Shown one piece after another: positions 10,643 to 52,267 of a stretch of DNA of 64,000 nucleotides; the first letter of the stretch is position 1; each line of letters starts with the position of its first letter. Source of the DNA: Ruditapes philippinarum (Eukaryota); assembly GCF_026571515.1 (NCBI RefSeq), contig NW_026861919.1:62001-126000 (forward strand), written 5' to 3'. The position numbers were made by a program, and so were the translations under genes. Under the pieces are notes generated by a model. That model searched no databases and was not told where the DNA came from. It saw only the letters and a list, made by a program, of their open reading frames with translations.

Positions 10643-11080
10643 GGGCTTAGTGCATATTAAAATTATTCTGCTATTTCCATAGGATAGCTGATAAACACTT
10701 CCCACGCGTATGAAAAATAATCATAAATAACTAAAATATAGTTTATTTGTTTTCATTAAAGAAGAATTAACTATTCACTATTAACTATTCAATTTTAAAT
10801 ATATTTGCACGAAATAGATAATCAAGTTAAATATTAAGTATTCTAATAATAACTGCTGTTTATAATTTAAAGATATCGGTAGGAGTTTTTCTATATGATA
10901 TTAAACGTGAAGAGCTGATGACTTTAAATTTTATTGGTTTATACAGAAGTAATTTTACTTCAATTATGTAGGTATCTAGTTACATATAGACACACTTTTG
11001 AATCCGTTCCTGGAACCAAACAGTACTGGGCAATGTGTAAACTTTCTTGCTTTAGAATACAACGGCTCGCTCCTGACTAG

Positions 11081-11813
11081 TGTTGTGCAGCCGAAAAATG
11101 ATAAAATTCATTTAAAAAAAAAAAGAATAAATATGCATGATGATTTTCTTTTAAACACAAATATTTATATATATAATCATTTTCTAAAAGGTCATATTTT
11201 TAAAACAAAATTTGTGAAATTTCAAATATGTTAAGTTACAAATTGTATGTGTTTCAATAACAGATGTCAAATTTAAAATTATGTAACTGGAAGATTAAAA
11301 TGCGGCTTTTCCTCTTTGTCCAATCAACTGTGCTAAAAGTTTTATAATGTATAGGTGATAAGGTCAATTAAGCTGTCTGTACTTATCATGTTGTTAAACC
11401 TTATGACTGATAAAATATCCAGGTGATGATTGTTGTTATAAATTCTATGTTGCTATGTTACATTATTTTGTATTGAAACCTGATTGGTCATTTTGTTATT
11501 TAAGACACAAAAAGGTTAAAATTCTATTGGTCAGTTAAAACGAAATCAATTTTAGAATTATTGTAAAGATATATGTAGAAAATTTAGAGTCAGTTAGATT
11601 TTGGATTTCCAAGTGATAACATTGTATTGTGGCTTTCCACAAAAAATAATCGTTACTGTTTTTAATATCAATTTGTTAACATCAGGATAACCTGTGTATA
11701 TGTTATATATTATCTGTGGTATTCCACTAAGAAAGAAACATTAAAATATAAAACGGAACATTGTGTTGAGATTCAATCCACCTTAAGTAGAACCCATAAT
11801 TCAGCGCATAACA
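11081..11813 (+). repeat. 5' LTR of the mini LTR element
   Basis: TGTTGTGC...GCATAACA. Contains two ATTGG (CCAAT) boxes, a TATA-like GATATAT, an Inr-like TCAGTT near 11590 and ATTAAA near 11740. Confidence 0.95.
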
Positions 11814-11894
11814 CGTGGCGGGAATCAGTGTCTTTCCCAACCTCTCAATTTAGCAAGCGAGACTACGAATTCAAATTCCCCAAGAAGAACAACA

Positions 11895-12779
11895 ATGAGT
11901 TTCACATATGGAATACCATTCAGAAGTGAAAAATCATGTGGACAATGTGGACTTTATCATAATAACAGACAGGAGAAGTGTTGTGCAAAAATGGCAAGAT
12001 GCAACAAATGTAATAGAATTGGACATTTTGCACGAGTTTGTCTACGTCCAGCAGTTAGGCAAAAGTCAAACCACTCAAAACTACGCGATCAGGAACGCAT
12101 GACAACTTTCATCAGACGCAAGACAGCTGAATACACATTTCCGTTTTACAATGAAGACGATGCCTACTTTAAGAAGAACCAAACAAACAATTCTGTAAGT
12201 AATGTTTCAACAGCAGAATTTCAGAAGTTGAAATCTTTGACCGATTCAATGACTAAAACTATTTACGGTTTAAAAGCAGAAAATACTGCCCTTGTTTTTA
12301 AAAATCAAAGACTTAAGGATTTTAATGAAAAACTACAGGATGAGGTTTCCATAAAGAAATTAGAAATAAGTCAACTTAAAGAAACATTTTTTCAAAACAA
12401 CAACTCGCTAAAGAAAAAAATTCGGACTGACTCTTCAAAACTAGAGATAATGGACAAACTTATATTAGAATTTAAGAAACTAAATGACGACTATGAACAA
12501 CTGAGATTGAAGCACAACCAGAAAGCCTATGAAATTATGATGATGGAATCAAGAAAAAACAATCAAATAGATGACTTGAAAGATGAAAACCACACCTTGA
12601 AAGATGAAATTGCCCAGTTGAAAGACAAAACTAAATATCTATGTCGAAAAAGAGGAAACAGAAATCAAGATCTTTCAAGTACATGCGAAACCGGGTTCCC
12701 ACATGAATGGAGAGGTCAATATCATCATGGAAGACAACAAGGACAGAGGGGACAATACAACAGAAATAGACGTCATTAA
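11895..12779 (+). CDS. 294-aa zinc-knuckle / coiled-coil protein encoded by the mini LTR element
   Basis: Intact ATG-TAA ORF. N-terminal CGQCGLYH...C and CNKCNRIGHFARVC (CX2CX4HX4C), heptad-rich K/E/L region at about aa 105-250, C-terminal RGQYHHGRQQGQRGQYNRNRRH. Confidence 0.85.
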   Translation: MSFTYGIPFRSEKSCGQCGLYHNNRQEKCCAKMARCNKCNRIGHFARVCLRPAVRQKSNHSKLRDQERMTTFIRRKTAEYTFPFYNEDDAYFKKNQTNNSVSNVSTAEFQKLKSLTDSMTKTIYGLKAENTALVFKNQRLKDFNEKLQDEVSIKKLEISQLKETFFQNNNSLKKKIRTDSSKLEIMDKLILEFKKLNDDYEQLRLKHNQKAYEIMMMESRKNNQIDDLKDENHTLKDEIAQLKDKTKYLCRKRGNRNQDLSSTCETGFPHEWRGQYHHGRQQGQRGQYNRNRRH

Positions 12780-12995
12780 AACTGTGTTGTTTACAATAAG
12801 ACAGTGATTAGGATATTTATTATTAGTGAATGGTACTTACGCTTTTCAGCAAAATCGGTGCTTTATATTCAAGTATATATTTCTGTAACTGAATATCTTA
12901 TGTAAACAGTATTCTGATTTAATGATATTTATTTTTGTTAAATAGTATTTATGCTTCATTTCACAGGAGTGAAATAGTCTTAAAGGAGGGAGAAG

Positions 12996-13728
12996 TGTTG
13001 TGCAGCCGAAAAATGATAAAATTCATTTAAAAAAAAAAAGAATAAATATGCATGATGATTTTCTTTTAAACACAAATATTTATATATATAATCATTTTCT
13101 AAAAGGTCATATTTTTAAAACAAAATTTGTGAAATTTCAAATATGTTAAGTTACAAATTGTATGTGTTTCAATAACAGATGTCAAATTTAAAATTATGTA
13201 ACTGGAAGATTAAAATGCGGCTTTTCCTCTTTGTCCAATCAACTGTGCTAAAAGTTTTATAATGTATAGGTGATAAGGTCAATTAAGCTGTCTGTACTTA
13301 TCATGTTGTTAAACCTTATGACTGATAAAATATCCAGGTGATGATTGTTGTTATAAATTCTATGTTGCTATGTTACATTATTTTGTATTGAAACCTGATT
13401 GGTCATTTTGTTATTTAAGACACAAAAAGGTTAAAATTCTATTGGTCAGTTAAAACGAAATCAATTTTAGAATTATTGTAAAGATATATGTAGAAAATTT
13501 AGAGTCAGTTAGATTTTGGATTTCCAAGTGATAACATTGTATTGTGGCTTTCCACAAAAAATAATCGTTACTGTTTTTAATATCAATTTGTTAACATCAG
13601 GATAACCTATGTATATGTTATATATTATCTGTGGTATTCCACTAAGAAAGAAACATTAAAATATAAAACGGAACATTGTGTTGAGATTCAATCCACCTTA
13701 AGTAGAACCCATAATTCAGCGCATAACA
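12996..13728 (+). repeat. 3' LTR of the mini LTR element
   Basis: Copy of 11081-11813. Only one difference seen by eye (G11694 vs A13609). Confidence 0.95.
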
Positions 13729-14684
13729 CTAGTCGGGCGCGTTAACCACTCGACCATGCGGCTAATTTATTTGTCAACAGTTTAGAATAAACCCAGAATG
13801 CCCATGGTTCTTTGATGTTTCTCTACAGATCATGCATGTTCCATTCCAAGCTTATTAACACTTTGTCATATTGTGTTTTGTAAATGTAGTTTGCACTGAT
13901 TGTTACATCTTTAAGCGAGTGTGATGAAAAATCAAATTTTTATTTAGCGATTTTCTTTAAAAACGTAGGCCTGCACGAAATTGTATACTAATGAAGACGA
14001 TATCAATACGTGGAGCAAAGTTACTACTACCGTAAGCAAAAAAAAAAATCTAATAAAAATCGAATGATAATGATAACTGCATTGTTTTAAGAAAGAACAA
14101 AAACATTTTCTACATTAAGCTTTTTTTTTCTTTTAAGGAGTTCTTTATTAAATTGCGCAGAAATAAAGTATTAAAATCGATGTGTGGGTTAACTTTCAGC
14201 AATTCATAACTAATCGTCTATATTTTATGATTTCCCTAAACATTTTTATCAGATATAATCATAATGAAAGTAGTCCCTTAAGACCGTAAGTTAATGCAAA
14301 ATAGTAATTGAAAATATATCATAGGGCGAGATATTGATTCTAGTTAGTTTTGAATAGTACTTCAATTCTGAGAAATATATCCGGGGATGATAATAAAAGA
14401 CCTGTAGACTTGAGTCAGTTTAATTACGCCAGTTAAAGTATTGTTATTTATATTTCAATATGCCCTCCGCAGTACAAATATATCCCCTTTTTATGTTTTC
14501 TTCGAACAGGAATCATGATATACAATGAAATGCGCGCTAACTTTACAAAACTCCAAAATGGAACCTAAGTTCTTGTTTCAACTGTATCACACTTATGGCA
14601 GACCGTATACAATTTGATTGATCCGGATTTCTGACATTTCTTTTTTTTATTTTCCAACGTTTGTTCGGCAGGCACACACATAAT

Positions 14685-27600: not shown

Positions 27601-30600
27601 GTGTTTTACTATTTTGAACATATGTGCCGTTTGACCGTGGCCTACACTTTACAAAATTCTTTCGACACTTTTTTTTTCAATTCTTATCTTACACTGATGA
27701 ATAGCTTATTCTAGTTTAAAAAATGGACACATTCATTTAAGATCTTTAGCGTAATAAGGGTTGATTTAAATTCAAAATATGGTAAACAAGACCAACAAGG
27801 AAAGGTGGGGTTCAATAAACGCATAGCAACAAAGTCCAGCGGTCAGGAGCCCAGGAGGACGAACAATGTCATTTTATCCTACGGTACTTTTTGTATGTGA
27901 ATGGAAAATATCGCAATCAAACAGCAGAACTAATTAAATTCGTGTTGAATTCTAGTTCCTGATTTCAGACACACTGTTTCAGTGCGTTACTAGTACTTCT
28001 CGGTCACTCATCTGTCATGTTTGCTTCAATATGCAACATGCGTCATTTCAAATTTACCTGCAGACAAAAGTGCAGCAGTAAATGACGAAAAGGTAATCAC
28101 CAGATGGAATGTCAGTTATATCACATATTTATCAAACCTGAACCTAAAGCATATTTGATTAATGTAAATAAATGATTATAAAGTAAAAACAGATTGAGTC
28201 AGTGATTACTTATATAGACTCTTTTGAAATGGATACCGATTAAGCTGGTGCAATAGAGGGGGGGGGGGGGGGGGGGTTTAACGATGATGCAATATCATTA
28301 TCGCTCACAGAGACTTTATTTCTATTTACCAGTTGCGATTGGAAACATCCAGTTTTCAAGTGTGGTTTTTATCTGAATGATCTGTGACAAAAACTGTGAG
28401 CGATGTTAGTTCAGATGTACTAGCAAACAGACAATTTTACTGTACATGCCACCTGGCGCCGGTTTAAGCAATGATTATCATCGTTTAATCATCGTTCAGT
28501 CAAGCCTTATAGAAATTCCGCCTAAGAATCCATGTGGAAGTGAAAATTTGCTGGGCAAAGGTACAAGTCAAAGGAGTTAGTATCACTTAAATTAGAAAAA
28601 AGGAATAAATAAAAACAACGAAATGTCGCATGATAGAAGCCCAGTGAATAAATTTTGAAAGAACGTTAGGGGATTTTAAGCCTGTAATTTGTTAACAAGA
28701 TGCCCTCGAACTATAGACGTTCTAACTGAAAGAAAAAAAATAACTAAAAAAGAGAGATTGATAGAATCTCTAAAGAACACCCAAAACGGCAAATGAAAAT
28801 ATTGCAGGTCCGTTTTGATTGATCCTGTTGATGGATTTGTCGTATAGCTGGTTGCACAGGCTAATGAGTCATACACGCTATATTCAAAAAGAATGACAAG
28901 TCAACATGTATATACATATAATAAGGTTTTTATTTCTTAATGTGCACTATGGAACATGACATGATTTATGAGTATTATAGTGCAGGAGATGCATACGGAC
29001 TGACCTTATGTCAGGATGATTTATATATGTAACTCTAAAACGTGTGTATTTATATACATTATAAAATGTCCTTAGGACAGGTTGATATTATATATACTAT
29101 TCTCAAATGTCAGAGTGGGAGTTCAACTTTGGTATTCCACTCGTTCACATGTGTGTTTGTATTTGTATATTAAAAGTATGTAACATCCGTGAGTTCTTTC
29201 TCCGTTATACGACAACGGTTGATTTGGCGCCTAAGACCAGCGATGTCGAAGCGACGATTTTGGACAGCGGGACACAACGAAGTACCTGAAACAGAAAATT
29301 AAAGGTGAGTGATCGTTTATATACCTGTAACTTGCTAATTTTGAAGATGTCAGATCAAGATATAGCTACAATTTTTGAAAATTTGTCAGATAAATTGAAC
29401 AATATTTCAACTATCATAGGTACACAGGATTTATCAGAAATAGTACAAAATTTTGATGGAAATTCTAAATATTTTAATGACTGGATAAAATCTATAGAAA
29501 AATATGCTATTTTAAAAGGTTTGGATGATAATAAAATAAAATTAGTCGCATTTCAATCAAGTAAAGGGACTGTAAGCGATTTTATATGTAGATATTTGCG
29601 TGATAATCACCGTAATTCGTGGGAACAATTAAAAGAAGAAATAAGTACTAGATTTGGGGAAATTAAAGATTTACATCATGAATTTTATCTTTTGAGAAAT
29701 TTAAAACAAGATTTGGGAGAAAGTGTTCAAATTTTTTTGGGGAAAAATTTATTAATTGTGCTGAAACCGCTTATGAAAATTATAAAACTAGGAGATAATA
29801 GTTTAATTGAACTTCAGTTAGTAGAATTGTTTACGGATAATTTAGCGCATAATTATTTAAAACTTAAACTTATGAGAGAAAAGCCAAAAACTTTACAAGA
29901 AGCAATTACTTGCGCAATGAATGAACAGAATTTCAGAGCTAGATTTTCTGCCAGAGTAAAATTTTCTAATGCTCAAAATCACGCAAAATACATGAATTAC
30001 AAAGCAAATAATTTTAATCATTATTATACAAGAAATTTTTGCGTGTACTGTAAGAGACCAGGTCACCATGTGCGTAGTTGTAGATTTAGGAAAAATGAAA
30101 TATATTTTGTATTTCACCGACAAAATTTTTCACGATTTAAGAAAAATAATAGCAATAATAGTTTGAAATCAAAGATTAAGTGCTGGAAATGTAATAATTT
30201 TGGTCATATTATGCGTGAATGTCGTAAACAAAATTTTTACGACAGAAACAAAATAAATTTTCAGGAAAACTAGCAAGTTCCTGTCACAAAGGGGTCATTG
30301 ACAGGAACGATAAAATACCAAAATAGATTCAATGTCTCTAGGACTTCAAAGCATAGTCCATTTTATTTGTTATATAACCGTGATCCAATTCTCCCGGTGG
30401 ACCTGTTGCTACAACCAAGGCAGCGCTATCATGGCGAAGAATATCACAAAATTGCATTACAAGAACAACATAATACTTTTCTATCTGTTTATAAGAACCT
30501 TAAAAAAGCAAAACGAGAACAAGCTAGCTATGCAGATAAGACCGCAAAAGATATCAAATTTGAAATAGGCGATCCCGTATTTTATAAGAATTTTCGTAAG

Positions 30601-32335
30601 AGAAGCAAACTAGATGTGAATTGGAAGCCATTTTATAGAATTATGGAGAAAAGGTCACCATTAACTTATATAATAAAAAATCAGTTTGACAATTCAACAG
30701 TTAAAGTCCATGCAGAACAAATTAGGCTCGCAAATATTAATGACTGGTCAATACCAAAAGCAGATGAAACTGGCCGACCAAAAAGAAATGCCACATTTGT
30801 AGTAACACCTGAAAATAGCGATACTGATGATGCTTCAGAAATACCAGAATCAGTATTACCCCAAGTTGCTAAGAATGTAAGAAAAAGAAAGATCAAATTC
30901 TGATAGTGAAGATGATATTCCATTAGCCGAATTACAGAAACATCTTCGACAACAACAACAAATTTCAAATAATGAAAATGTTCAAAGTAATGCACATTCA
31001 GAAGAAATGCAATCGCAGACTGATTCAGAATTAAATAGCAATCCTCAGTCACTAGCAGCATATAATGCTATTCAGACAGATTCAATGGCTGAGGATAATG
31101 ATTCAGATAATGAAATGTTTATAAACTCTGTTTCTACTAAAAAGAAAAGTATTGTAAAACCACGATATAAAGTATCTGGTAAGGTAAACACAAAGGTACA
31201 TAATAATAATAAACGCTTGAAACCGAATGTTAAAATGTTTTTACAGGATTAGCCAGTATGCTATAGAAAGTTATATTCCGTGTTATGTGCTATACTAATT
31301 TTCGGTAAATTGACCTCAGGCATTGTAAATAGTTATTATAGAAAAAAATATATATGTTACAAGAAACGATAATAAAACAAAACAGAAAATTACATTATTT
31401 AATCATATATCTTTATATTTTTGGTGGTTGTATTCATTAATATCAATTTTCAACTTGCTTTTATTAGAAATATATCTTTGATTTTTTATTATTGCTTAAA
31501 ATGATCGTTATTCGCTATATGTTTATAAATAGATCGGTTAATTAAAATGCATTTCAAAGTAAATGACAGCACTTAATCATGAGTTTCAAATTGATTATTT
31601 ACTTTATTTCATATTAGAATAACATGTGTATACATACATGTTTCAACTGTCAACGCACAATCATTAAATAAAGTTTAAATTGGGATAAGTCTTATTGTCG
31701 AAATAAAACTAAAGTTAATAGCTTAGTTAAAAACTAACAAAATATGTCTAGAAAAGTAAATTTTTTTTTTAAATATCAAGTATTACATAAATAAGATACT
31801 TACACTAGAGAACATCTTTCATTGGAATTCTTATCCTATGCATTTTATGACAGTTGTCTTGTTGTTCATATATCTGAAACAAAATTATGTTTATTGTATA
31901 TAATATCTATTAACCGATCTGACACCGGACGAAAATGCAAAATATTGGTCTAACGATCACTTGTCGTCCAGCCAAGACAGAGAGGTGCGAGCGAATTCGC
32001 CGGTACAGTAAAACACCGCCTGACTAGAAATATTACAGTCAGCCTCTACGATGTCATCTATGTACAACAAAAAAAAACCATGCAGATATAACCATAAACA
32101 CCTTCTTCGATGTAAAACCATGCAGATATAACCATAAACACCTTCTTCGATGTAAAACCATGCAGATATAACCATAAACACCTTCTTCGATGTACAACCA
32201 TGCAGATATAACCATAAACACCTTCTTCGATGTAAAACCATGCAGATATAACCATAAACACCTTCTTCGATGTAAAATTATATGAAATAAGCGTCTACGA
32301 TGTTTAAAATATATAACTATGCTGACACAGCCGTC

Positions 32336-32379
<44 letters not shown>

Positions 32380-35300
32380 AATTGTGGAATCAAATAAACT
32401 TTTGTTCCTGTCTTCAACCAGAGAAGCCGAAAACTTCCGTTTATCAATAGAATGTGTTTTTCTATGTGTTATATAAACTTAAAAACAAAAACCCAGAGAA
32501 ATACTGATGACAACTTCTTATCAAAATAATTATTTGTGCGCGACAGAGATATCCAAAATAAATATCACATAAACATTTGCAAGAATCGTGCAACAGCAAA
32601 CTGTTAATTTAATTATCTTTTACTCAAAAACATTGCTACATAAATGAAGAATTATAGATCTATCATCACTTTGTTGTATTGTTCAATACAAGACATTTTA
32701 CAACGACGAAACAAGAATAGCGTTTACAGATGTGCCAATAAATATTCGAATATAACTTTATCAACTTGTGTATAAAGTCTACGTTTACACATATCAAATA
32801 CATATATATAAATTTTAAAGAATCTTCAACAACATCAACCATTTATGAACAATTATGAGTGTCAATTTAAAATTATTCTTTAGAAAGCTACATACCAACG
32901 ATTTGAAATTCCCGACACGTCACGACCACCAAGCCATACGATGTCAGCAAGTACCTGTTACAAAAAAATATACCTGTCACAGGAAGTGTTCAATGCGCAT
33001 GCACAATACACGTTTTACAGGAAATGAAACACCTGGACATTTTATCAATTATCAATTGTTTATAATATTTTTTAAACTTTTTCGTATATAAATATCTTTT
33101 CTACTCTTATCATACATATAATTCTGTTAAATTTTATACCTTAAAGTTTTTCTAATTAATATTCTTAAAATAATTTGTTCTTTGAAAATTGTTAACTTAT
33201 TTGTTTGTTTTTTTATGTTTTCTTGATCTCTAGAAATTAACTTTTTTTTCTTTTTTTTTATGATGAAATAAAGGAAATTTAATATTTATTGAAAAACTTA
33301 TAAAGCTATAATATTTACCTTATGTCACTTTAATATTATTTGTAGAATAACAGTTATATTAACTGATTAAAAATTTCGAAAAGATTATCTTTACATTTAA
33401 CAATAATTATTTTTTTTACTTATTAAAAACATTACAAAATTGTTGAAGTAAATTATAACTTACCCGACTGCAGTATCCGAAAACTTTTTAAAAAGTGACA
33501 AGAAAATATATTGAGCGAATATTTCCGAATATTGTTTCCTAAGGCGTTTTTCTTTTTTCAAAATAAAGTAACAAAAGTCGTTAGATAACATCTCTGACCG
33601 GACATCTCTGACCGGATATTACCTTAAGGGTAAAACAGATGTCAAGTTGATTTTAGATTTTTATAATTTGTTAGAACGAGTTTGAAATGTTTGATATTAA
33701 ATAATAACTTGTTCAATACTTTTTTTTTTAAATATTTTTTTTTATAAGTAATGGAGGAATTGTCGTATAGCTGGTTGCACAGGCTAATGAGTCATACACG
33801 CTATATTCAAAAAGAATGACAAGTCAACATGTATATACATATAATAAGGTTTTTATTTCTTAATGTGCACTATGGAACATGACATGATTTATGAGTATTA
33901 TAGTGCAGGAGATGCATACGGACTGACCTTATGTCAGGATGATTTATATATGTAACTCTAAAACGTGTGTATTTATATACATTATAAAATGTCCTTAGGA
34001 CAGGTTGATATTATATATACTATTCTCAAATGTCAGAGTGGGAGTCGGCTTTGGTATTCCACTCGTTCACATGTGTGTTTGTATTTGTATATTAAAAGTA
34101 TGTAACATCCGTGAGTTCTTTCTCCGTTATACGACAGATTGCAGTGGTATTTGCCAGCTACCGCCAACGCCCCTAGTATTTTTAGATTTGTACTTTGTAT
34201 TCCATTTAACAACGCTTACAAAACACTGACCTAAGCCCCATCAAAACAAAAACACAATTTTGTGCTGAAAGTATATTATTAAACAGAAATACAAGTCATT
34301 CTTTATCTTGCGATAGTGTTTTTGAGTAATATTAACTTAAAGGAATCTGCTTCTTCTCGCAGGTGGCAACACAAATCGATTTGTTCATAATAAATCAGAA
34401 TTAACCATTAGCAGAACCAAACAATGGATTACTCAAGACAATGCTCTTACTGAATCGCGAAAACGTTTTTGTTTTGTCACAGCTAAATGTATACATGTGA
34501 TTTTGAATGATTGCATTCACACCAGTAATGTATACCATAGGAAAAAAACTTGTGCTGTCAATGATACTAATCAGTTTACCATGATATTGGCCAAGATGCT
34601 TTGTAAAAGGAACACCCGTAGTAATTTGGAATCACCTTTATGAAGTCCATCAGTTAGCAACAATGGTGTCAAATTTGAAAATATTATCACAGACAATGAG
34701 AGTATTTTAGGTTTAAATGTCATAGAATACCAACAATTTGAGGCCTACATTTTTCTAAGTAACGGCAAAGATTTACAATCTTTGATGCAATTTAAATGTT
34801 GCAACATTGCTCTGTAAGCCGTTCGACGCAAAGAGAGGGTCTACAGTATTAGGTAATGACTAACAGTTTTAGTAGTTCCGATGTTTAAGTTCTTTTCGGT
34901 CATGATGAGTTTAATCAACATAGCCCCCCACACACAATATGGTGGTAAAGAAAGACGCTTTTACATGATCAAATATAAAATGTCATATAGTGGCTACCCA
35001 TTAATGTTTTTGACTAGCTTTATTAGTCAGTTAAGAGATGTTTGGTAAATTTCGTCGTTTAAACTCAAAACAATTCCAGAATAAATTTATATTTAGAAAA
35101 CAAGAGTGAAGATAGATCAATAATGTATTCTTTTGAAATCATTCATGTGGGAATACTCAGTAAATAATTGAGTGCTTTAAGCATTTTTACTATTGCTTTA
35201 AAGTTATTCCGATAGGCTATAATTAGACACCAATCAATGACCTCTGTTAACTGTGAAGGTTATACTCTCATAGTAAACATGTCTTGTCGTCCAATGACTT

Positions 35301-38300
35301 GCATAATCATCAAGCGAAATATTATCATTTTAAAGATTTTGTTTTATATCGATAACTTTATATTTCATTCAACAATGCTTTCTGAACATTGAGTTAAGCC
35401 CCCTCCTCCTGCTTCGTCATTTTTATACTTATTTTTGTTCTCATGTTCGGTACCATGATAAGTTCCCTTTTCGGTGATGCCTTGGGGCTTGATTTTGTTT
35501 CGGTTGCATTTCGGTAAAGGTTTCTTATTCGTCTTTGTACTCATCCATGAATAAAAAGATGTAATCAAATATTTTATTTAATGTGTCAGTCTTAAAAATA
35601 ATGTTTTGGTCATTTAATGATCCATGCACGTTTAGTATTTTTAATTTAATATATTTACTTCTTGCGGCAAGTTATACTTTTCCACCTTCTATTAAACATT
35701 TTTTTCTGAATAAGAACAATATTTTTACAGCTCTGGAAAGGAAGATTACACGAGACTTGGTTTATACAGAATTTATTTTAGTTCGATCGTGTAGGAAGCT
35801 ATAAGCTTATAGACACACTTTCGAATCCGTTCCTCGAACCAACCAGTTCTGAACAATGAGTGTAAAGAACAACGACTGGCCCCTGACGGGGTTTAAACCC
35901 ATGCGACTAGCTTCAAGTTTCAAGTTTTTTATTTCAACTAGGCCCATATGGGCATCAGTTTTATAAACAGTAAAATTTCACAAACAAATGAGCATTAACA
36001 AAATAATACAGATGTGTAAATAAAGCTTGAGACAAAATAATTTGCATGATAAATACAAAAATAAGACTAGAGATTCTTAAATTATGAATGACTTTACAAA
36101 TGAGTGACTAGAATGATACATAATGCAACCGCACAATGAAAGTTCCTGACCAAAACGCAAATGAAGTGATGCAGCGACATGGTGTAACCACAACATGGGG
36201 CCCATAAAGCCCCACACTGCAACCACACCACGCCGGTACAATTAGTTCCACAAAAATTAAATAGGAAGTGTCACAATGCGATTACAAATGTCATGAGACC
36301 TTAAAGATGAAAAAATAACAAAAAAATAAATAAAATACATAAAAATAGATAAAAGTAAATAATGAAAATAAAGACAATATTTGGCAATAGATACTGACTA
36401 GAAGGTGGTAAACATTATTTCACAATAGACATTATTCTTTGTGTAAAAACAGACAGTTTGATTAATACAGTTCTATCAGTATTTTGAAATAATTGCTGTA
36501 AATTAAACATGTTACCTCTTCGTAAATTAATGGGCAAGTACTTTCTACGATAAATGTTAAAATAAGGACATTGAAAAATATAATAAAACTCACCACCTAA
36601 TAAAGAGTTATTTGGACAGAGATGGCAATATCTTAAATCATGATCCAAACCTATATAACGACCCTTTTCAATAGGGAGTTTATGGTTACTACATCTAAAC
36701 CTACACAGCGATAAGGCTAGATTTCTAGGTAAAAGTTTAAAATAGGCTTCTAACTCAAATGAGGATTTAAAAATTCTGTAAGTGATACATTTGCTAGAGT
36801 TAAACACTTGTTCATGCTACATTTGAACATATTGGTCTTTGATTCTAGATTTGACAATATTTTTAAAATAAGAAGGTGATAACACAGATTGGTTTATCCA
36901 GTATTCAGCAAAACCAAGCTCTTGCAATGACTTTTTAACATAAACTATCCATGGGGAGAGATATACGTTTTGACGGTCCAATTCAAACATTAGTTTGTAC
37001 ATAATATTACATACTTTATCAGGTTTCGAATTAATGATTTTGCACCAAAAATTTAGGACTCTACATTTTATGACACAATCAATTGGAAGAGTACCAAGCT
37101 CCCCAAATATCATAACACTAGGAGTGGACTTTTTGACACTCATTATGAGTTTAAGATATTTCAACTGAAATTGCTTTACAATATCAATGTTACCTACACC
37201 CCACACTTCTACACCATATAACAATAACAAAATAGGAGTGACCATGGAGTCAAAAAGTTGTAACTGTAAATCTATATCAAGACAAAGAGTTCTGGATTTT
37301 TTAAGTACAGCAAACATAGCTTTTCTAGCTTGGTCACACAGGTATTTAGTAGTTTTATTGAACTTACCATTATAATTAAACTTAACACCTAAGTAGCTAA
37401 AATCCTCAACAATATCAAGTATGGCATTGTTAAATTAACAAGAAGGAGTATTTCTACATTTCCCTTTTGAAAAAATCACCACTTTAGTTTTGGCTGTATT
37501 TACTTGAAGTTTCCATAACTCGCAATAAGTAGACATAGCATCTAGTGCTAATTGAAAATCAGATGCAGATTCTGCAAAAATTACAGTATCATCAGCATAA
37601 AGCAGTAAAAACAATTTAAAGTAAACCTCTACTATACCATCACTTAGTACATTTTTAATAGACTGCGAAAGTAAATCTAAACCATTATACGTATTTGAGA
37701 TATGTTCTACAAGATCATTCAGGAAGACAGAAAAAAGAATGGGTGATAGGTTTTCACCTTGACGGACACCTGTTGCACTTGTAAAATATGTTGATAAACC
37801 CTGAGTGCTTTTTACACAGGATTTAGCTTTGTCGTAAATACTATAAATTACCCTTAGCATTTTACCATCTACATTGTGCTTTAAAAGTTTCATCCATAAA
37901 AAAGTTCTATTTACAGAATCGAAAGCTTTTTTATAATCCACAAATGCACAATATAATTTCTTATTCTTACTTAGATAAAAATCAACTAACAGTTTCAAAG
38001 TAAATATATGATCTACAGTTCCATAATCTTTACGAAAACCAGCCTGCTCTTCACATAACAGTCCTGAATTTTCTAGAAAAGTATTAAGTCTGTTATTAAG
38101 AATACTTGTGAATAATTTTCCTAAACAACTTAAAATAGTGATTCCTCTGTAGTTGTCTGGGTTATTTACATCACCCTTTTTTTATAAATAGGAAAAATAA
38201 CTCCTTTGCACCAGACTTCTGGGACACATGCTGATTCAAAAATGATATTAAACAATTTATTTAGAACAGGCAGCATAATATCTTTAGAGTACTTGATATA

Positions 38301-41300
38301 CTCATTCAATATATTGTCATGTAAAGAACAAGCTTTATTATTACTTAAACCATTAATTGCATTCAATATTTCACTGTTAGTTATAGTGGAGTTCAATTCA
38401 AATTTATAATCTGATATATTGGTTATATCAAAATCAACATTCTCTCCCTCATTATTTTCATTCAATTTACTGAAATGTTCATAAAAAGCCTCTGCACTAA
38501 TATTAGACATAATTTTATTTCTTTCTCCCGAGTATTTATTCAGTAAAGACCAATATGCTTTAGCGATTATTAGATTACTAGTCCGACGCGTTAACCACTC
38601 GGTCATGCCGCCACTACTCAAAAGTTAAAACAGAAAGAAAAGTTACACAAAAATTCTAATGAACAAAACGATACAGAATCTATCTTGTTATCTAACATTA
38701 TACCGTTTGCCTTTTTAAGAAAAAATGGGACAACATTGATTTGTAGAAAAGAAAATTAAGTTTAGGATGTAGAGATAACATAATTATCCAACTTTATTAC
38801 GCAAAAGTGAAAATTGTATTAAATGACAAATTTTACCACTGTTTGATAGGGATCCGATCGTCAAGTACTTAACTTACAACTTATTTAACGATTTCATTTT
38901 GTACACGACTATGTTTCAGCGGAGATGATGCCTTAGCGTATGTATCATAATTTAGTAAATCACGTGCTATATTAACTTTTTAATTATTATATTGGATCAA
39001 GTATATTTATTTAAATTTTCTTTTTTACTCGACTTTTTTAATTTTCTCGTACATTAACATGCTTTCAAAACTGGTTTTATTTTCAATAAATTAGCTTACT
39101 TTAAAGTCTACTATACAGGGAATCTGCATGTTTACACAATTTTTAAAATACTTTCCATTTTTTACTCATAAACATAGCGCACTCTTATTTATTTTACAGT
39201 TTTATATTATGGTTGCTATTATAGAAAAAATAATGCAAGAAAATAATTAAAAGTAACATTATTTCAATTATTATTTAGCAGTTATTATAAGTACAAAATT
39301 TCATATATTTATGGGGATTTCTGAATGTAAAAATGACAAAATAATTTGTGTTGGTAGGAAACTTCTCACTGATTATTACAATAGAATTGTAAATACAACA
39401 AAGTTATGATTATGTAATCAATGGCACTGTGAATCGAAATTTGAACCGGTCATATTTTTTGCTAACCCTTCTTCATGCTAATCTCTATTTGGTACATCTT
39501 GCCTTTTTTGTCCGTCAATATTCTTAATACAGTCTTCATTATTAATCTTTTTTATCAAGTACATTTAAGATATGTAGCTTTGTAAGGGTCTATTGTTATA
39601 ACACTTCACTCATGGCTAGATCCATGCTGGTCGCAAACCCATTATGTTGGTTTTGTCGTGACACGGCTCATTTATAATTTAGAAGATAAAAATTTGTAAC
39701 AAATCATATTAAATGATAATCTCTTTACCGTTGCCTATTTATTGCTGTTAAGTTCTTTAATCTTCTTGCTAAAAAATTAAAATACAACTATGGCATATTT
39801 TGCGCTATGGCATGATTATAACAAATGTTTTCACATGCAATTTTTATTATAATTGTATATATGACTATGTATATATGCTCATGCTTGTCTTTACATTTGT
39901 TAGGTTTAATTCTTCAAATATATTTCATATGTCTTCTAAACTTAGACATATTTAAGATTATGGTTTAATTGCGATATATATATATATAAAATGCTTGTTA
40001 ACAAGTGAGATGCAAACATTTTAACAAGTCTAGTTATTTAGTACACATATTTAAATTCGTTTTTCGAATACATTCGGCTTCAAGAATAATATTTTCGTCT
40101 TCCTTTGACAGTAAAACATGCAAATTGTATTGCTCTTTTGTTTAAATTTTTCAAAATTTAAATGTTCATATTTACCTTTTAAATATAAGATTATGCATAA
40201 GACATTATAGAGGGCGTAGAAATTAGCTTGCTTACTAAATTTTTATTTTTTTTATATTTTCCTTTTAAATATTGGATTCTTCGTAAGCCATGATAGAGGG
40301 TGTGGAAGTTAGCTCGCACTTTCCAGTACAGTCCATGAAGAAGTTTAATCAAAGCAAGACTGAAACATTTTCAATTTTGTCGTTTTTAGCGTTCTTTACG
40401 GATTCTTTTTTTTTTCTCTCAATTTTAATCATTTTCACTACAAATGCTCTATTAAGCCTATTTTATTACAAATTAACAAACGTCAGAAGCTCTGCTTTCA
40501 TTCACTTAATTTTGACAAGCCGCCAAAGTAAGCATATAAATCTTCTTAAGGTCTATTATCTGAAATCAATTTCGTTGTAGAAGTCTAAGCATATATAGTT
40601 TGTCATCAAAATGTTCAGTCCTTGATTGATGGGATAATGAATAAAGGCAACTCGCTCAATTTCATCAATTTGTTTCTATTTGAAGATAACTGTTATGAAA
40701 GTCAAATAATCTTGTGAAAAATGTATTTGAATTGGATTTCTGTAACATAAGGTTAACATGTTCAAAAAACAATATAAAAAACAACAAATACTTAAATTAA
40801 TTAAAGATTACAAACATGTATTAACATGATTTATTTCTTTTTCGATGAAATATGAATATTCTTATTAGATTTGTATACTAGGTTACAATTTTTTTCTAGA
40901 TTTAAAAAATATTCTATTTTGTTAGACCTTCAGACCTAATGACACAATGTTTTGATGTTACCGTTTTTATCGATAGGGATAATTATTTTCAAAAGAATGA
41001 ATGAAAATGATAACAGTTGTCAAATAAAGTAACATATCATTGCCTTGTTAAAAGGAGGCGGAATAATAAATTTTACCACGCGTAAAACTGAGAAATAAAA
41101 AAAACAATTTTGGGAGAAGTGCGTCCGGTCACAATTTTTCTTCAGCCACTCATTCGACTTTTTGCAAAAATGACATTTCCCAGTTTTAAGTATATCCAAC
41201 GTTTATCTGCAGGAAACTACCATGCTCTTTCCTTTTTCATGATTTCAAACACCACAATAATATAATAAAAGATATACAGATCAAAATATATCACCGATAA

Positions 41301-47300: not shown

Positions 47301-50300
47301 AAATCTGTTTAATTGTTGATGTCCTATTATAGTTTATAAGAGGTTACTCATAAGTTAACAAGATGAATAATCCTTCACTTCAGTTGCGATTAGCAATTAC
47401 ATGTTTGTTTTTATGTTATAGTGATCAGGTATATTTATAGATATGTATACATTTAGCTACCTTTATAAAATTTATAACAAATATATTTACATACAGCGCT
47501 ACTTTCGGCAGGTGATAAACACACTCCAAAACCTAAATGTAACGGTTGTCCTTTTGAAAGGAGAAAAGTGTATTCATTTCGAAGGCATAATGTCTCTTTA
47601 AGACAATTAAATCTTATCTTTGACGCATAAATGACGATTTCATTTTTTTATTGCAGGAAATGAAGACACCATGGTTAAAGTTTTTCAAATCCATGCCAGT
47701 AATTGCTATTATGGTGGCAAATTTTTGTAGAAGTTGGACATTTTACCTGCTAATTATAGAACAACCTACTTATTTTAATGAAGTATTTGACTTCGATTTG
47801 TCAAAGGTAAACATATATAGATCACTTTTCAAGTTATTTATACCAACAACTCTCCACAAAGTTTGTATCAAATTGTAATAAGATTATGTTGAACGGTTGT
47901 AGAAATAATTCATAGTAAAATGGAGCTAAACTTTCTCAATCTCGGTCATTAATCCTATTGGTCGTCTGCTTCATCATCATAATTTTATGGTATTAGCAGT
48001 CGGTCACATGTGAAGAAATAAATAATTACTGGTTAGTTATCCATTAAAGCAGGTAAAGATACACGGACCGCCGATATACACATGTATATGACAAAAAAGT
48101 GTTAAAGATCCTACAACTTATTTTTTTATGGTTTTATATCATAAATATAATGCTAAAATGAAAAGTTATCAATATTGTAAGTTCCAAAGAGCACTATTTG
48201 TAAAGGTATTACCGAATTTACATTTCATGTTTACTTAATAAAATGAGGTAATTAGAAATTTATTTTCTATAAAGTCTAAGTCATACTTTTCAATAGGAAA
48301 TGAATGCATATATTTTAATGATTATATATAATGTGGACAAATATTTGCAGTACATATTTTACCTGTTCTCGATGTTTGAAAATTGTTTTAGAAGCATAAT
48401 TATATACATATATAAATTTTCACTTAAATGTGAAACAACCTTAATTACAACATTCAGGATCTTTAAATTAAGGGTTAAGACCAAACAAACACAAGCTAAG
48501 TATTTAAACTTTCATATCAAGACGGGAATAAAAACACGTTTCATCAAGTTTATTCTGACAATGCTTGACTTTATTTCTATTTATAGAGTGGTATTCTGTC
48601 CGCCCTACCACATCTTATAATGGCGATTATTGTTCCGATAGGAGGTTTTATAGCTGACTACCTGCGCCGCCGAGGTATACTTTCTACAACAGTTGTTAGG
48701 AAAATCTTCAACTGTGGAGGTAAAATGTTAGTTTTCTCATAGTGTAGAAACTTTTGTATATTATTATTATAACAGGGATTGATAGGGACTACCTGTACCA
48801 GTATTCAGCGATTATTTATATAGACATGTCGGCATTTATTTCATTGTAGTTAGTATATTTCTCAAAATTAGGAAACAAGTAAATTACAGCATCTGGGATT
48901 CGCAAGAGTACTAAGCGCAGAACAAGATTCAACTTCCAGCAATGCGCCTTAGTCTAATAAAAATGTATTTATTAGTTGTTTTGTTATATAACGTTACGTT
49001 GATAATGATTGTGTGTTGGGATAGGTAACCTCTGAATTAGCCACTTCATTGACCTGTTTTATGCACACGATGAAATTTCAGAGTAATTCAAATTAATTGG
49101 CAAAATACGATTAATTTTGTAAAAGTACAAACGACCTATGTATCATAATTCTGGGAAATATTATTTTTTTACATTATTAAAGGTTTCGGTATGGAGGCCG
49201 TTTTCCTGTTAGGTGTAGGTTTTACACGTAACACAACCACTGCCATTGTGTGTCTCACACTTGCTGTTGGATTCAGTGGGTTTGCAATATCAGGTATTTT
49301 CATATATTTATCTTTTGATTATTCATTTCTATTTTATAATACTACCTTCCTTCCCAAATCTTCAATTCTTTAGTGCAAATCGCTCGCCATACCGCAAGCT
49401 AGCTGGATAGCATCGTTACATGAAAGACTCCAAAGTCCGTGACGAGATTCGAACCCGCTGAGGTGATAGCCGAGTGATTTAAACTTGACGAACCTAACCA
49501 CTTGGCTTAGGCGGCCATGATATTAACCAGGTCTTGGTTCCTGTTTAAAATATAATGATTTTAATCTCTAGTTCATCTCCGATAATAAGAATTTTCTTAG
49601 AGTTAACAATAAATGGTTTTAAGAAACTTATAAATTTTATGAAAAGGTCATTTGTTAATTGAATTATTTTTTATGCTGCCCGCAAAATTCGGGGGAGCAT
49701 ATAGTCGCCGCCTTGTCCGTCCGTCCGTCTTTCCGTCCGTCCGTCCGCTTTTCTTGTCCGAGACATAACTTTGAAACAACAAAAGGTATCAACATGAAAC
49801 TTTGTAGGTAGATAGATCTCATTGAGAAGCTGTGCAGTGTACAAGAACCGTAACTCTGCCTTGCCTAATTTTTGAATAATTCCCCTTTGTTTATTTTTAC
49901 ACTTTAAACTTTGTCCGGGACATAACTCTAAAAGTATAAAAGGTATCAACATGAAACTTTGTAGGTAGATAGATCTCATTGAGTAGGTGTGCAGTGCACA
50001 AGAACCGTAACTCTGCCTTGCCTAATTTTTGAATTATTCCCCTTTGTTTATTTTACACTTTGAACTTTGTCCGGGTCATAACTCTAAAAGTATAAGAGGT
50101 ATCAACATGAAACATTGTAGGTAGATATATCTCATTGAGTAGGTGTGCAGTGCACAAGAACCGTAACTCTGCCTTGCCTAATTTTTGAATTATCCCCCTT
50201 TGTTTATTTTACACTTTGAACATTGTCCGGGACATAACTCTAAAAGTATAAGAGGTATCAGCATGAAACTTTGTAGGTAGATAGATCTCATTGAGTAGGT

Positions 50301-52267
50301 GTGCAGTGCACAAGGAATGTAACTCTGCCTTGCCTTATTTTTGAATTATTCCCCTTTGTTTATTTTTACACTTTGAACTTTGTCTAGGACATAACTCTAA
50401 AACTATAAGAGGTATCAACATGAAACTTTGTAGGTAGATAGATCTCATTGAGTAGGTGTGCAGTGCACAAGAACCGTCACTCTGCCCTGCCTATGCTTTT
50501 AATTATTCCCCTTTGTTTATTTTCACACTTTGAACTTTGTCCAGGACATAACTCTAAAACTATAAGAGGTATCAACATGAAACTTTGTAGGTAGATAGAT
50601 CTCATTAAGTAGGTTTGCAGAACACAAGACGGTCTTGCCTACTTTTGGAGTAATTGTCCTTTGTTCATTTTGACACTTTGAACTTTGTCCGGGACATTTC
50701 TCTAAAATTATAAGAGATATCAACATGAAACCTTGTAGATAGATAGGTCTCATTGGGTAGAAATGCAGTGCTAAAGAATCATTACTCTACCTTGCCTTAT
50801 TTTGAAGTTATTGCCCTTTGTTTATTTTTACTTTTTTACTTTTGTCCGGGACATAACTCTAAAACTATTAGATATATCAACATGAAACTGTGTAGGTAGC
50901 TAGAAATCATTTGATAGAACTGCAATGCTTAAAGAACCTAAACAAAGCCTTGTCTAATTTTGGAGTTATTGCCCTTTGTTCATTTTTACACTTTGAATTG
51001 TACCCGGGACATAACTCTAAAACTATAAGAGATATCATCAGGAAACTTTATAGATAGATAGATCTCATTGAATAGAAGTGCAGTGCAAAAAAACATAACT
51101 CCGCCTTGCCTAATTTTGGAGTTTTTGCAATTTTCATTTTTTTATACTCTCCTGTGTCCAAAAACTTCTCGGGGAGCATCACCCGGTTCAACCGGTTCTT
51201 GTTTCTGTAATGCATGCAGCTGTTTTTACTTCATTTTCGTGTTTGATTTAAACAATACCATCAACAACACTTGATATGGAAGATTTTTGTTTTGTGATAT
51301 TTTTCAGGATTCAATGTAAACCACTTAGATATAGCCCCTCGTTATGCTAGTATATTGATGGGCTTTAGTAATGGGTTTGGAACAATTGCCGGAATGCTGT
51401 GCCCTATTGTCACAGAACAGTTGACCAAACACGAGGTTAGTTAACATCTAAAACACATCAAACAAATAAAAAGGTTGAAGATATGCTGAATACGATTTAT
51501 TTCCCTTTGGTGTATATATCTGAAATATACTATAATTATTCTTAAGAAAAATATGTACGAACATTGCTTGAAAATAAATTCATTTCATGTAATAAAATCC
51601 TATTACTAAATAAAGTTGACATGTGTATGAAAAGTAATCTTTTATTTTCGTTTTAAAAAATAAACAGCAAGTAATTCGAAAATATCATGTTATAAAAATA
51701 ATAATAGAACACCGTATAAAATTGATAATCTCAGATTGTCTAAATTTCTGTCATTCACCACAATAAAAATAATCTATAAATTGATTTATAATACAGACTG
51801 CAGACGACTGGGAGCGCGTCTTTATCATAGCCAGCTGTGTCCATTTTGCTGGGGTTGCGTTCTATGCTGTGTTCGCTTCCGGTGATAAACAGGAGTGGGC
51901 TGATCCACCACCGGAAGACAACGCGTGGAAACCGGAAGATACGCTTAAAGGAGAGGATAAATTCAATTCGTACGGGAGCTTAAACAAAGAAAGCTTTTCA
52001 CAACAGAACGGCACCATACAGAGCAAAACGGATGATTATGGCTATGGGAATTATGACGACCATTATAATTATGGAAATCAAAATGGGACAGTGCAGCAAA
52101 ATGGTAGCGTAGTAAATGACAGCGGGTACGGATACGACGCCCCTGTCAATTTCAATACTGACTACTTTACGCAATATGCACAACCCACTTATGAAACAAA
52201 AGAGGAATTTGTCCAGAAACAAGCACGAGAGCACGTGTATTTCTCTGATGATGAAAAGGATATATGA
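21527..52267 (+). CDS. VGLUT: Vesicular glutamate transporter (SLC17A6/7/8, eat-4-like), 13 coding exons, about 646 aa. Exons: 21527-21612, 41946-42093, 42836-43003, 43592-43710, 44640-44754, 45297-45384, 45605-45691, 46924-47060, 47657-47806, 48587-48719, 49183-49293, 51308-51435, 51797-52267
   Basis: Family motifs [106 protein letters not shown] and [10 protein letters not shown]. All introns are GT-AG with compatible phases, and the 1941-nt total is divisible by 3. Confidence 0.95.
25027..25186 (+). mobile_element. SINE 3' fragment (related fragments at 53714-53822 and, inverted, about 59825-59870)
   Basis: Shared TTACG.AA..TC.GT.GTTCTACT.AG, GCACC.GAG and ACGT.AA..CCCAACCAAAA tail between copies. 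Confidence 0.6.
26242..26872. mobile_element. Non-autonomous element with a long terminal hairpin (26242-26378), Crypton-like
   Basis: Imperfect inverted arms TTAATACACG...GGAAGGTGATAATCGGCCC / GGGCCGATTATCACCTTCC...CGTGTATTAA around CCCGAGGGCTTTAGCCCGAGGG. TTAATACACTTG near 26384 is inverted to CAAGTGTATTAA near 26865. Confidence 0.6.
28838..29214 (+). repeat. 5' LTR
   Basis: Direct repeat of 33761-34136. Differences seen only in one patch (GTTCAAC vs GTCGGC). Confidence 0.95.
29347..30273 (+). CDS. gag: Gypsy Gag (capsid plus two CCHC zinc knuckles)
   Basis: [64 protein letters not shown] and [14 protein letters not shown]. Ends QEN-TAG. Confidence 0.9.
   Translation: MSDQDIATIFENLSDKLNNISTIIGTQDLSEIVQNFDGNSKYFNDWIKSIEKYAILKGLDDNKIKLVAFQSSKGTVSDFICRYLRDNHRNSWEQLKEEISTRFGEIKDLHHEFYLLRNLKQDLGESVQIFLGKNLLIVLKPLMKIIKLGDNSLIELQLVELFTDNLAHNYLKLKLMREKPKTLQEAITCAMNEQNFRARFSARVKFSNAQNHAKYMNYKANNFNHYYTRNFCVYCKRPGHHVRSCRFRKNEIYFVFHRQNFSRFKKNNSNNSLKSKIKCWKCNNFGHIMRECRKQNFYDRNKINFQEN
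30325..30903 (+). pseudogene. Gypsy integrase C-terminal remnant (post-catalytic region, GPY/F-type)
   Basis: [48 protein letters not shown] and VHAEQIR. No PR, RT, RH or DDE core is present. Confidence 0.85.
32074..32277 (+). repeat. 40-bp minisatellite x5 inside the Gypsy element
   Basis: Unit AAAACCATGCAGATATAACCATAAACACCTTCTTCGATGT. Confidence 0.95.
32335..32379 (+). repeat. (CAA)n microsatellite
   Basis: Directly visible. Confidence 0.95.
33761..34136 (+). repeat. 3' LTR
   Basis: Direct repeat of 28838-29214. Confidence 0.95.
35797..38612 (-). mobile_element. tRNA-derived SINE split by a LINE (SINE parts 35797-35911 and 38561-38612)
   Basis: The rejoined minus strand reads GGCGGCATGACCGAGTGGTTAACGCGTCGGACTAG...CGCATGGGTTTAAACCCCGTCAGGGGC, with A and B boxes. 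Confidence 0.85.
35912..38560 (-). mobile_element. 5'-truncated LINE (RTE-X/L2-like), degenerate ORF2 at about 36415-38560
   Basis: [52 protein letters not shown] and [21 protein letters not shown]. 3' tail AATAAAAAACTTGAAACTTGAA. TAGC duplicated at 35908-35911 and 38561-38564. Confidence 0.9.
39618..39670 (-). mobile_element. MITE terminal fragment, same family as 14685-14786
   Basis: GATCCATGCTGGTCGCAAACCCATTATGTTGGTTTTGTCGTGACACGGCTCA is the reverse complement of that terminus. Confidence 0.65.
41946..42093 (+). CDS. VGLUT: VGLUT exon 2 (cytosolic N-terminus)
   Basis: Acceptor TTCTCTCTTTCAG, donor GTAAGT. Encodes [49 protein letters not shown], phase 0 into exon 3. Confidence 0.85.
42836..43003 (+). 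CDS. VGLUT: VGLUT exon 3
   Basis: [28 protein letters not shown]; AG/GT boundaries. Confidence 0.95.
43592..43710 (+). CDS. VGLUT: VGLUT exon 4
   Basis: [33 protein letters not shown]. Confidence 0.95.
44640..44754 (+). CDS. VGLUT: VGLUT exon 5
   Basis: [38 protein letters not shown]. Confidence 0.95.
44829..44999. mobile_element. Tc1/mariner-type MITE
   Basis: TA|CAGTCAAAC...GTTTGACTG|TA with internal GTGGTCTTTATT repeats. An inverted relative lies at 56835-57015. Confidence 0.8.
45297..45384 (+). CDS. VGLUT: VGLUT exon 6
   Basis: [29 protein letters not shown]. Confidence 0.95.
45605..45691 (+). CDS. VGLUT: VGLUT exon 7
   Basis: [29 protein letters not shown]. Confidence 0.95.
46924..47060 (+). 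CDS. VGLUT: VGLUT exon 8
   Basis: [34 protein letters not shown]. Confidence 0.95.
47657..47806 (+). CDS. VGLUT: VGLUT exon 9
   Basis: [29 protein letters not shown]. Confidence 0.95.
48587..48719 (+). CDS. VGLUT: VGLUT exon 10
   Basis: [44 protein letters not shown]. Confidence 0.95.
49183..49293 (+). CDS. VGLUT: VGLUT exon 11
   Basis: [13 protein letters not shown]...[11 protein letters not shown]. Confidence 0.95.
49372..49516 (-). mobile_element. Degenerate tRNA-derived SINE
   Basis: Minus-strand A-box (GCCAAGTGG) and B-box (GGGTTCGAATC) at tRNA-like spacing. Confidence 0.6.
49668..51203. mobile_element. Helentron/HINE (pearl-like) non-autonomous element carrying a satellite array, in VGLUT intron 11
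   Basis: T-rich ends, subterminal inverted repeat ATGCTGCCCG/CGGGGGAGCAT repeated at the far end (CGGGGAGCAT), (GTCC)n microsatellite, terminal palindrome CCGGTTCAACCGG followed by CTTGTT. Confidence 0.85.
49755..51150 (+). repeat. Tandem array, about 9 copies of a ~157-bp unit
   Basis: AACATGAAACTTTGTAGGTAGATAGATCTCATT (or a variant) recurs at about 49791, 49948, 50104, 50260, 50417, 50574, 50722, 50879 and 51037. Confidence 0.95.
51308..51435 (+). CDS. VGLUT: VGLUT exon 12
   Basis: [35 protein letters not shown]. Confidence 0.95.
51797..52267 (+). CDS. VGLUT: VGLUT exon 13 (last TM and cytosolic tail)
   Basis: [33 protein letters not shown]...SDDEKDI-stop. Confidence 0.95.

Follow-up and report, generated by a model that had tools for sequence, protein, structure and literature searches.

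A recently inserted, capsid-less LTR retrotransposon of Ruditapes philippinarum with a selected protein that may serve as an RNA packaging adaptor for Gypsy particles

Non-autonomous LTR elements are generally taken either to lack coding capacity or to retain a genuine Gag. An element in the window, by which we mean the whole 64,000-nucleotide stretch of Ruditapes philippinarum DNA that was analysed, is neither, and it raises the question of what a single protein that is neither capsid nor enzyme does for the LTR element that encodes it. The original prediction was of a complete element with two 733-bp LTRs that differ at one position, a CTAG target-site duplication, a polypurine tract and a 1182-bp interior, all of which the sequence confirms; the PBS-like site that it also named is present after a 2-nt spacer, with no more than 13 of its 18 positions in agreement with the host tRNA-Ala. 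The element spans 2,648 bp in total with CTAG at both flanks, its LTRs have TG...CA ends (TG...TA in older subfamilies) and a single mismatch (G at 11694, A at 13609), and 885 of the 1182 bp of interior are taken up by one ORF that runs from ATG to TAA. Its features, in window coordinates, are as follows.

11077..11080, + strand: left target-site duplication CTAG (the family target preference is C-T/A-A-G-like)
11081..11813, + strand: 5' LTR, 733 bp, TG...CA
11816..11832, + strand: degenerate primer-binding site TGGCGGGAATCAG, preceded by a 2-nt spacer, complementary to host tRNA-Ala(AGC) at 13/18
11895..12779, + strand: single ORF, 294 aa, under purifying selection
11937..12041, + strand: zinc-knuckle pair, aa 15-49, nucleocapsid-like
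12069..12176, + strand: family-specific helical motif, aa 59-94, RDxxRMxxF...PF, with the strongest constraint in the ORF
12192..12650, + strand: long helix or coiled coil, aa 100-252, predicted parallel homo-oligomer
12651..12776, + strand: basic, Arg/Gly/Gln-rich, low-confidence tail that aligns with the second knuckle pair of distant relatives
12982..12995, + strand: polypurine tract
12996..13728, + strand: 3' LTR, 733 bp
13729..13732, + strand: right target-site duplication CTAG

The window ORF matches no Pfam family at E<=0.001, and no capsid, protease, reverse transcriptase, RNase H or integrase family is matched by the Pfam search even at E<=10, as had been foreseen; an Rfam search returned nothing named for the element. 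The insertion target is a highly transcribed short interspersed repeat (window 10934-11076 and 13733-13760) that reaches a depth of ~1400 in two RNA runs and has a paralogue at 35757-35866. A second defective LTR element in the window (28833-34136, with 99%-identical repeats) encodes a Gag whose matches to a Ty3 capsid and to knuckles are weak (29290-30273), followed by an integrase-like tail only, and is a conventional deletion derivative, in contrast to the capsid-less element. The window also holds LINE reverse-transcriptase remnants (1363-2667 and 36415-38624) and a tandem array with a period of ~156 bp (49754-51148).

The window element was inserted recently and belongs to a multi-copy family of non-autonomous LTR retrotransposons, whose members combine an LTR pair, a primer site, a purine tract, a target duplication and the lack of Pol in dispersed copies. 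Searches of the genome gave 41 matches to the interior (40 of 97 candidates scored), 137 to the protein (133 of 269 candidates scored) and 408 candidates for the LTR, and the junction of purine tract and LTR occurs 67 times as compared to 0 times for a reversed control, so the structure of the element is not due to chance. Among 70 fetched loci, which were the best matches and are therefore enriched for good copies, 42 are complete. Identical 4-bp flanks with a CTAG-like preference border 31 of these 42 (5-bp flanks, none), and the 30 flank pairs that were compared are mutually unrelated, as target duplications of separate insertions; preferred insertion at tRNA genes or in one repeat was considered and rejected on these unrelated flank pairs, a relaxed ARAGORN search having given noise. 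The interior is 1169-1200 bp long in 40 of the complete copies, the two LTRs of a copy diverge by a median of 0.42% (23 of the 42 at <=0.5%), and an ORF of at least 260 aa is open in 27. The claim of recent transposition in the present form is thus upheld, and the element is not the single copy that would have spoken against it. Subfamilies down to 66-70% protein identity share the same build and are likewise young. Many internally deleted family copies are also present in the genome, as are lone LTRs at 7 loci that lack the interior, 3 of them with clean 4-bp duplications. Four further loci (L013, L019, L010 and L262) hold tandem copies with a common LTR, in the order LTR-interior-LTR-interior-LTR or with a doubled LTR. 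Between subfamilies the LTRs and untranslated parts differ by 1-9% and the ORF by 14-17%, which implies either that copies are mosaic or that the non-coding parts, with their cis signals, are the more constrained.

Passage of the element's RNA through reverse transcription is strongly indicated by the identical LTRs, by primer sites that in some copies have been brought back towards the tRNA sequence and by G-to-A hypermutation of the sense strand, which is clustered in 2 of the 42 complete copies, L030 (G000:C2451) and L041 (G000:C9221). The interior of L030 carries 47-49 G>A against 4 C>T changes (43 of 47 before A) and that of L041 42 against 2 (35 of 42 before A); the bias of G>A over C>T has a p of about 1e-10, and the GA context a p of 1e-11 and 3e-6, respectively. 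These changes lie in the 3' two-thirds of the interior and spare the LTRs. A third copy, L038, with 13 G>A changes, is ambiguous and was left out of the count. Clustering, strand bias and context preference are together the pattern by which APOBEC-type editing is recognized, and such G-to-A clusters are the mark that cytidine deamination leaves when it acts on minus-strand cDNA. Four matches to AID/APOBEC-like deaminases lie above the Pfam cut-off in this genome (L155-L158, on G000:C509, C2309, C8225 and C12228); the two that were read have HAE and SPCxxC motifs, with SNAD4/NAD1 as best families, and as candidate genes they may encode the host enzymes that made the edits. The pattern resembles that of APOBEC-edited vertebrate LTR elements, in which sense-strand G-to-A changes are likewise clustered with a dinucleotide preference (PMC4866542). 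In their comparative screen, Knisbacher and Levanon (PMC4866542) report DNA editing to be absent from 19 invertebrate genomes; unlike in that invertebrate screen, the editing signature is present here, in a genome that encodes AID/APOBEC-like deaminases. Retroelements have been proposed as targets of invertebrate deaminases by Krishnan et al. (PMC5889660), and the GA-context signature makes this proposed anti-retroelement role directly testable.

The original prediction held that the element may belong to a lineage maintained with its own dedicated protein and need not be a random deletion product, and selection on the ORF bears this out. On 31 of 35 extracted open ORFs, that is, ORFs chosen for being open, and with one distant (L044), two hypermutated (L030, L041) and one truncated (L013) sequence dropped, tree-based and approximate estimates of omega are 0.36 (MGK) and 0.26 (GY), which differ from 1 with 2dlnL of 148 and 202 (p<1e-33). 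Of 11 pairwise values of omega, 10 lie at 0.22-0.40; the remaining one, 1.40, comes from the closest pair, which has 7 changes. An omega of ~0.3 is not near 1, and with 27 of the 42 complete copies keeping the ORF the family is not mostly disrupted; the ORF is kept under purifying selection. Variants that are shared between copies number 122 N to 114 S, singletons 62 to 24 and sites 715 to 167 (Fisher p=0.0014), a contrast of the kind to be expected where selection works on those copies from which new ones arise. For strong selection in an element with no enzymes of its own, the simplest account would be that the protein aids the very RNA from which it is translated.

Transcripts appear to be present in some material. 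The original proposal to look for the element in RNA-seq data gave a divided answer: in two runs of one study there are reads in every bin, the whole ORF is covered 14-100-fold in 4-5% of each run (the libraries look unstranded, and DNA carry-over is possible in the ORF-covering reads), and reads span the joint of interior and LTR; two runs of another study gave LTR reads and almost none on the ORF.

The prediction of one intact ORF without a capsid was correct, with the refinement that the ORF opens with a Gag-nucleocapsid-like knuckle pair. This N-terminal pair (CxxC-H-C plus CCHC, aa 15-49) has the pattern found at the end of Gypsy Gags in the genome, and is no closer to the Gag of Gypsy elements with the same primer than to the Gags of another Gypsy group. 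With the family profile the EIAV nucleocapsid is matched at E 5.6e-7; its other matches are to coiled coils of a generic kind. An AlphaFold2 model on 54 sequences (pLDDT 81.6, pTM 0.44) consists of the knuckles, helices at 59-81 and 89-94, a single helix of ~150 residues at 100-252 and a low-confidence basic tail, with no globular capsid. None of the 54 family members matches a Pfam capsid family, as compared to the Gag of a same-primer Gypsy, which as a control matches Retrotrans_gag; aligned with that Gag, the family profile reaches the knuckle only, at a probability of 6.5%. Foldseek on PDB and BFVD gave no match at E<=0.001, and in the ESM Atlas, where the best scores are 0.83, nothing named was found beyond a knuckle and generic coiled-coil likeness. 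When aa 55-255 are modelled in three copies, they form a parallel coiled coil with a score of 0.60 (best control 0.01), contact agreement between runs of at least 79% and pLDDT of at least 72. Of solved pairs, 21 of 30 pass the mark used here (in animals, 7 of 16), as against 0 of 23 single chains, and coiled coils may pass it because the predictor has memorised them; the model supports predicted self-association of the coiled coil, not a copy number. The 54 sequences, at 17-73% identity, retain the Cys/His ligands and the R-D-x-x-R...P-F motif, and the coiled-coil part is poorly conserved across families. From these parts it is likely that the protein binds RNA through its zinc knuckles, and it may favour the element's transcript over other RNAs.

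The protein has relatives, one of them seen in an element of the same build. This one, from a locus in the same genome (L044/L152), is 282 aa long and 33% identical and has a further knuckle pair at its C-terminus; it is the single ORF between LTRs of ~545 bp, with a perfect tRNA-Ala site, an AATG duplication and the same LTR-ORF-LTR order; to judge by alignment, the basic C-terminal tail of the window protein is likely a remnant of such a second pair, kept by distant relatives. A profile search of 1.84 billion representatives gave 562 matches, and the motif RDxxRMxxF...PF is found in 73 of the best 150 of these by a profile that was built partly from matches it then scored. All 73 carriers are 126-376 aa long, 8 have two knuckle pairs and none has a reverse transcriptase or protease motif, and the motif occurs in 0 of the 9 matches of more than 500 aa among the best 150 of the 562. 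Among 30 clusters looked up, four have named members, all of them bivalve (Mytilus coruscus, Pinctada imbricata in two, and Argopecten irradians) and annotated as hypothetical or CCHC-type proteins, which makes a bivalve host likely; of two host markers, C1-set gave 5 weak matches at about 30 bits and big defensin none. The two Pinctada imbricata clusters hold 4 and 5 paralogues, the latter being five 333-aa copies on five long contigs, and some bivalve relatives are thus dispersed near-identical copies, known here from proteins alone. Searches of viral contigs gave 57 pattern matches and no relative, and metagenome contigs gave 14 weak loci (E 1e-6 to 1e-4). The stand-alone, capsid-less protein family is wider than this genome.

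It had also been proposed that the element uses the enzymes of a helper Gypsy. In many elements, including Gag-Pol Gypsy elements, the LTR is followed by a 16-nt site that pairs with the tRNA-Ala(AGC) of this genome; the window copy matches this tRNA at 13/18 and other family copies at 14-18/18. Both degenerate (13-16/18) and perfect tRNA-Ala sites follow the same LTR end in six other LTR families (L096/L246, L102/L248, L104/L244, L107/L254, L113/L250 and L114/L252; in five of the six, gag and pol ORFs were observed), the perfect-site copies having been picked by the search pattern itself. This suggests that all of these families are primed by tRNA-Ala, and that occasional correction from the primer tRNA is likely. 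Imperfect primer sites are common in bivalve Gypsy and errantivirus-like elements too (PMC13524379): in 30 of the 36 bivalve rows of supplement 1 to that survey, 4 elements have no primer mismatch, all of them His, and 2 are assigned to Ala. Ten pol-bearing loci were read, from 4939 pol candidates (for one, C6259, the ORFs were listed in the wrong orientation); 7 have gag and pol ORFs, three of these with a third ORF, and candidate helpers include elements with this third ORF after pol, as in bivalve errantivirus-like elements (PMC13524379). None of the ten has DNA similarity to the element in LTR or interior, and the family profile matches only their Gag knuckles, in 2. No autonomous element was found at the 7 lone-LTR loci, and neither the 9 unassigned junction matches nor 6 family controls led to a long helper ORF with the same LTR. 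What the element shares with Gag-Pol Gypsy elements is the tRNA-Ala site and the 4-bp duplication, which indicate the clade, not a specific helper; the tRNA-Ala-primed Gypsy clade likely supplies the helper functions, and the proposed helper stands at this level, as a probable use of that clade's enzymes.

Other elements with unusual coding content were seen in the course of these searches. L110 (G000:C11275, 514-5187) is a short LTR element with the same primer site and only a 558-aa ORF, which has an RSKR site and a hydrophobic end and is envelope-like by inspection, with no Pfam match; L101 and L106 are short same-primer elements of this type, with the 558-aa ORF or remnants of it, and 4-bp duplications occur in the group. 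L105 (G000:C7607), C2964 and C9150 are young LTR elements with an open pol of 1640-1710 aa and no long gag ORF, in the manner of BARE-2.

How these observations are best joined is a matter of inference as regards protein function, helper identity and packaging role. On balance, and by our estimate with somewhat better than an even chance of being right, the protein of this recently inserted, selected, capsid-less element acts as an RNA packaging adaptor for Gypsy particles. It would bind the element's own RNA via the zinc knuckles, would bundle through its coiled coil, given the predicted self-association, and would in this form help the RNA into particles of tRNA-Ala-primed Gypsy elements, which would probably contribute the capsid, the reverse transcriptase and the integrase. 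Some restriction factors are truncated Gags, Ty1 p22 being an example, and the protein might instead be an interference or anti-silencing factor, which would compete with the Gag of the helper or protect the element's RNA against host defence and play no role in packaging; nucleic-acid-binding knuckles and a predicted oligomeric coiled coil fit this equally well, and the family does meet host editing. We nevertheless regard it as rather improbable: the gene occupies the gag slot directly after the primer site, and a factor that acted on all elements alike would put weak selection on its own copies, whereas here selection is strong and is seen in shared variants.

It is distinctly unlikely that the copies are deletion derivatives of an autonomous Gypsy with an unusual Gag or accessory ORF, with selection acting in a parent that is absent from the assembly. 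The genome searches score best candidates only, few pol candidates (10 of 4939) were read, and a negative search among longer proteins is weak evidence by nature, all of which leave some room for such a parent. Yet the same 1.18-kb interior recurs in subfamilies whose dS is near 0.6, the 33%-identical relative has the same short build, the motif is missing from all nine long matches among the best 150 of 562, and four protein queries returned only short elements or knuckle-only matches; neither a long element nor a long protein with the motif of this ORF was found. LINE ORF1 proteins carry an RNA-binding head on a coiled-coil stalk, and the passing three-copy model might be taken to predict a minimal non-capsid packaging scaffold of that kind, with the helper providing Pol only, as could the pol elements without a long gag ORF in this genome. 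Those elements share neither LTR nor interior with the present one, and Gypsy Pol is normally delivered as part of the Gag particle; we give this reading little credence. A role for the open frame in the RNA alone, with translation stabilising or routing the transcript and the protein inert, would suit the poorly conserved coiled-coil part and the many internally deleted copies but is largely refuted by residue-level conservation, namely of the Cys/His ligands and R-D-x-x-R...P-F across 54 sequences at 17-73% identity, with omega at 0.12-0.13 in the motif region.

The adaptor reading places the element beside several known groups. Mammalian MaLR elements have a single internal ORF. They too are a large group of non-autonomous LTR elements, in which homology to retroviruses survives in traces only (PMC6466679). 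They are related to ERV-L, not Gypsy, and no sequence link to the present element is expected. The nearest precedent is the plant TR-GAG group (Chaparro et al. 2015, PMC4350172), whose members are likewise shorter than 4 kb, with LTRs, a primer site, a purine tract, a single ORF and no Pol, and are expressed and present in several copies. The present family shares the length below 4 kb, the one ORF and the two or more copies, whereas the capsid domain of Gag (Retrotrans_gag, UBN2; PMC4350172), the defining trait of TR-GAG, occurs in 0 of 54 present members. TR-GAG1 is a plant element with a 5-bp duplication (PMC4350172) and the present family an animal one with 4 bp, and its protein, unlike that of TR-GAG, has N-terminal knuckles and then a coiled coil. 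TRIM, ETn and VL30 also move with a helper's proteins but are without coding capacity (PMC4350172, PMC6466679), and the interior of the present family, with an ORF under purifying selection, is not the non-coding one of a TRIM or LARD. ETn shares its LTRs with its helper MusD (PMC6466679), whereas no LTR-sharing helper was found here. Bivalve Gypsy and errantivirus-like elements are autonomous, with gag, pol and env (PMC13524379), as compared to the single capsid-less ORF of this element. Nothing of this kind appears in the parts available to us of a bivalve TE survey (PMC10294476) or of the envelope-element survey (PMC13524379), which excluded LTR pairs less than 5 kb apart; nor was a published description found in the literature searched, most subscription papers being outside it. 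Searches for an earlier finding by sequence and by location came back empty, those by wording yielded only accessory ORFs within autonomous elements, and an unclassified Repbase or Dfam entry for the family may possibly exist. The "new class" of the original prediction is therefore slightly too strong a term: single-ORF non-autonomous LTR elements are already known as TR-GAG, and the novelty lies in a dedicated protein family that lacks a capsid.

These findings define an unnamed protein family whose members are currently listed by bivalve genome annotations as host "CCHC-type" genes, and there is a fair chance that a bivalve-wide class of such parasites exists. More tentatively, and with rather less than an even chance, we suggest that these are old and widespread satellite-like LTR parasites of bivalves that lost capsid and enzymes and gained a hijacking protein of knuckles, conserved docking helix and coiled coil for loading their RNA into the particles of helper Gypsy elements, and that invertebrate AID/APOBEC-like deaminases edit retrotransposon cDNA in vivo. 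A selected protein of its own in a capsid-less lineage implies an undescribed step by which retrotransposon parasites gain access to helper particles and, if the adaptor reading is true, the family would be an animal counterpart of satellite viruses with an adaptor of their own.
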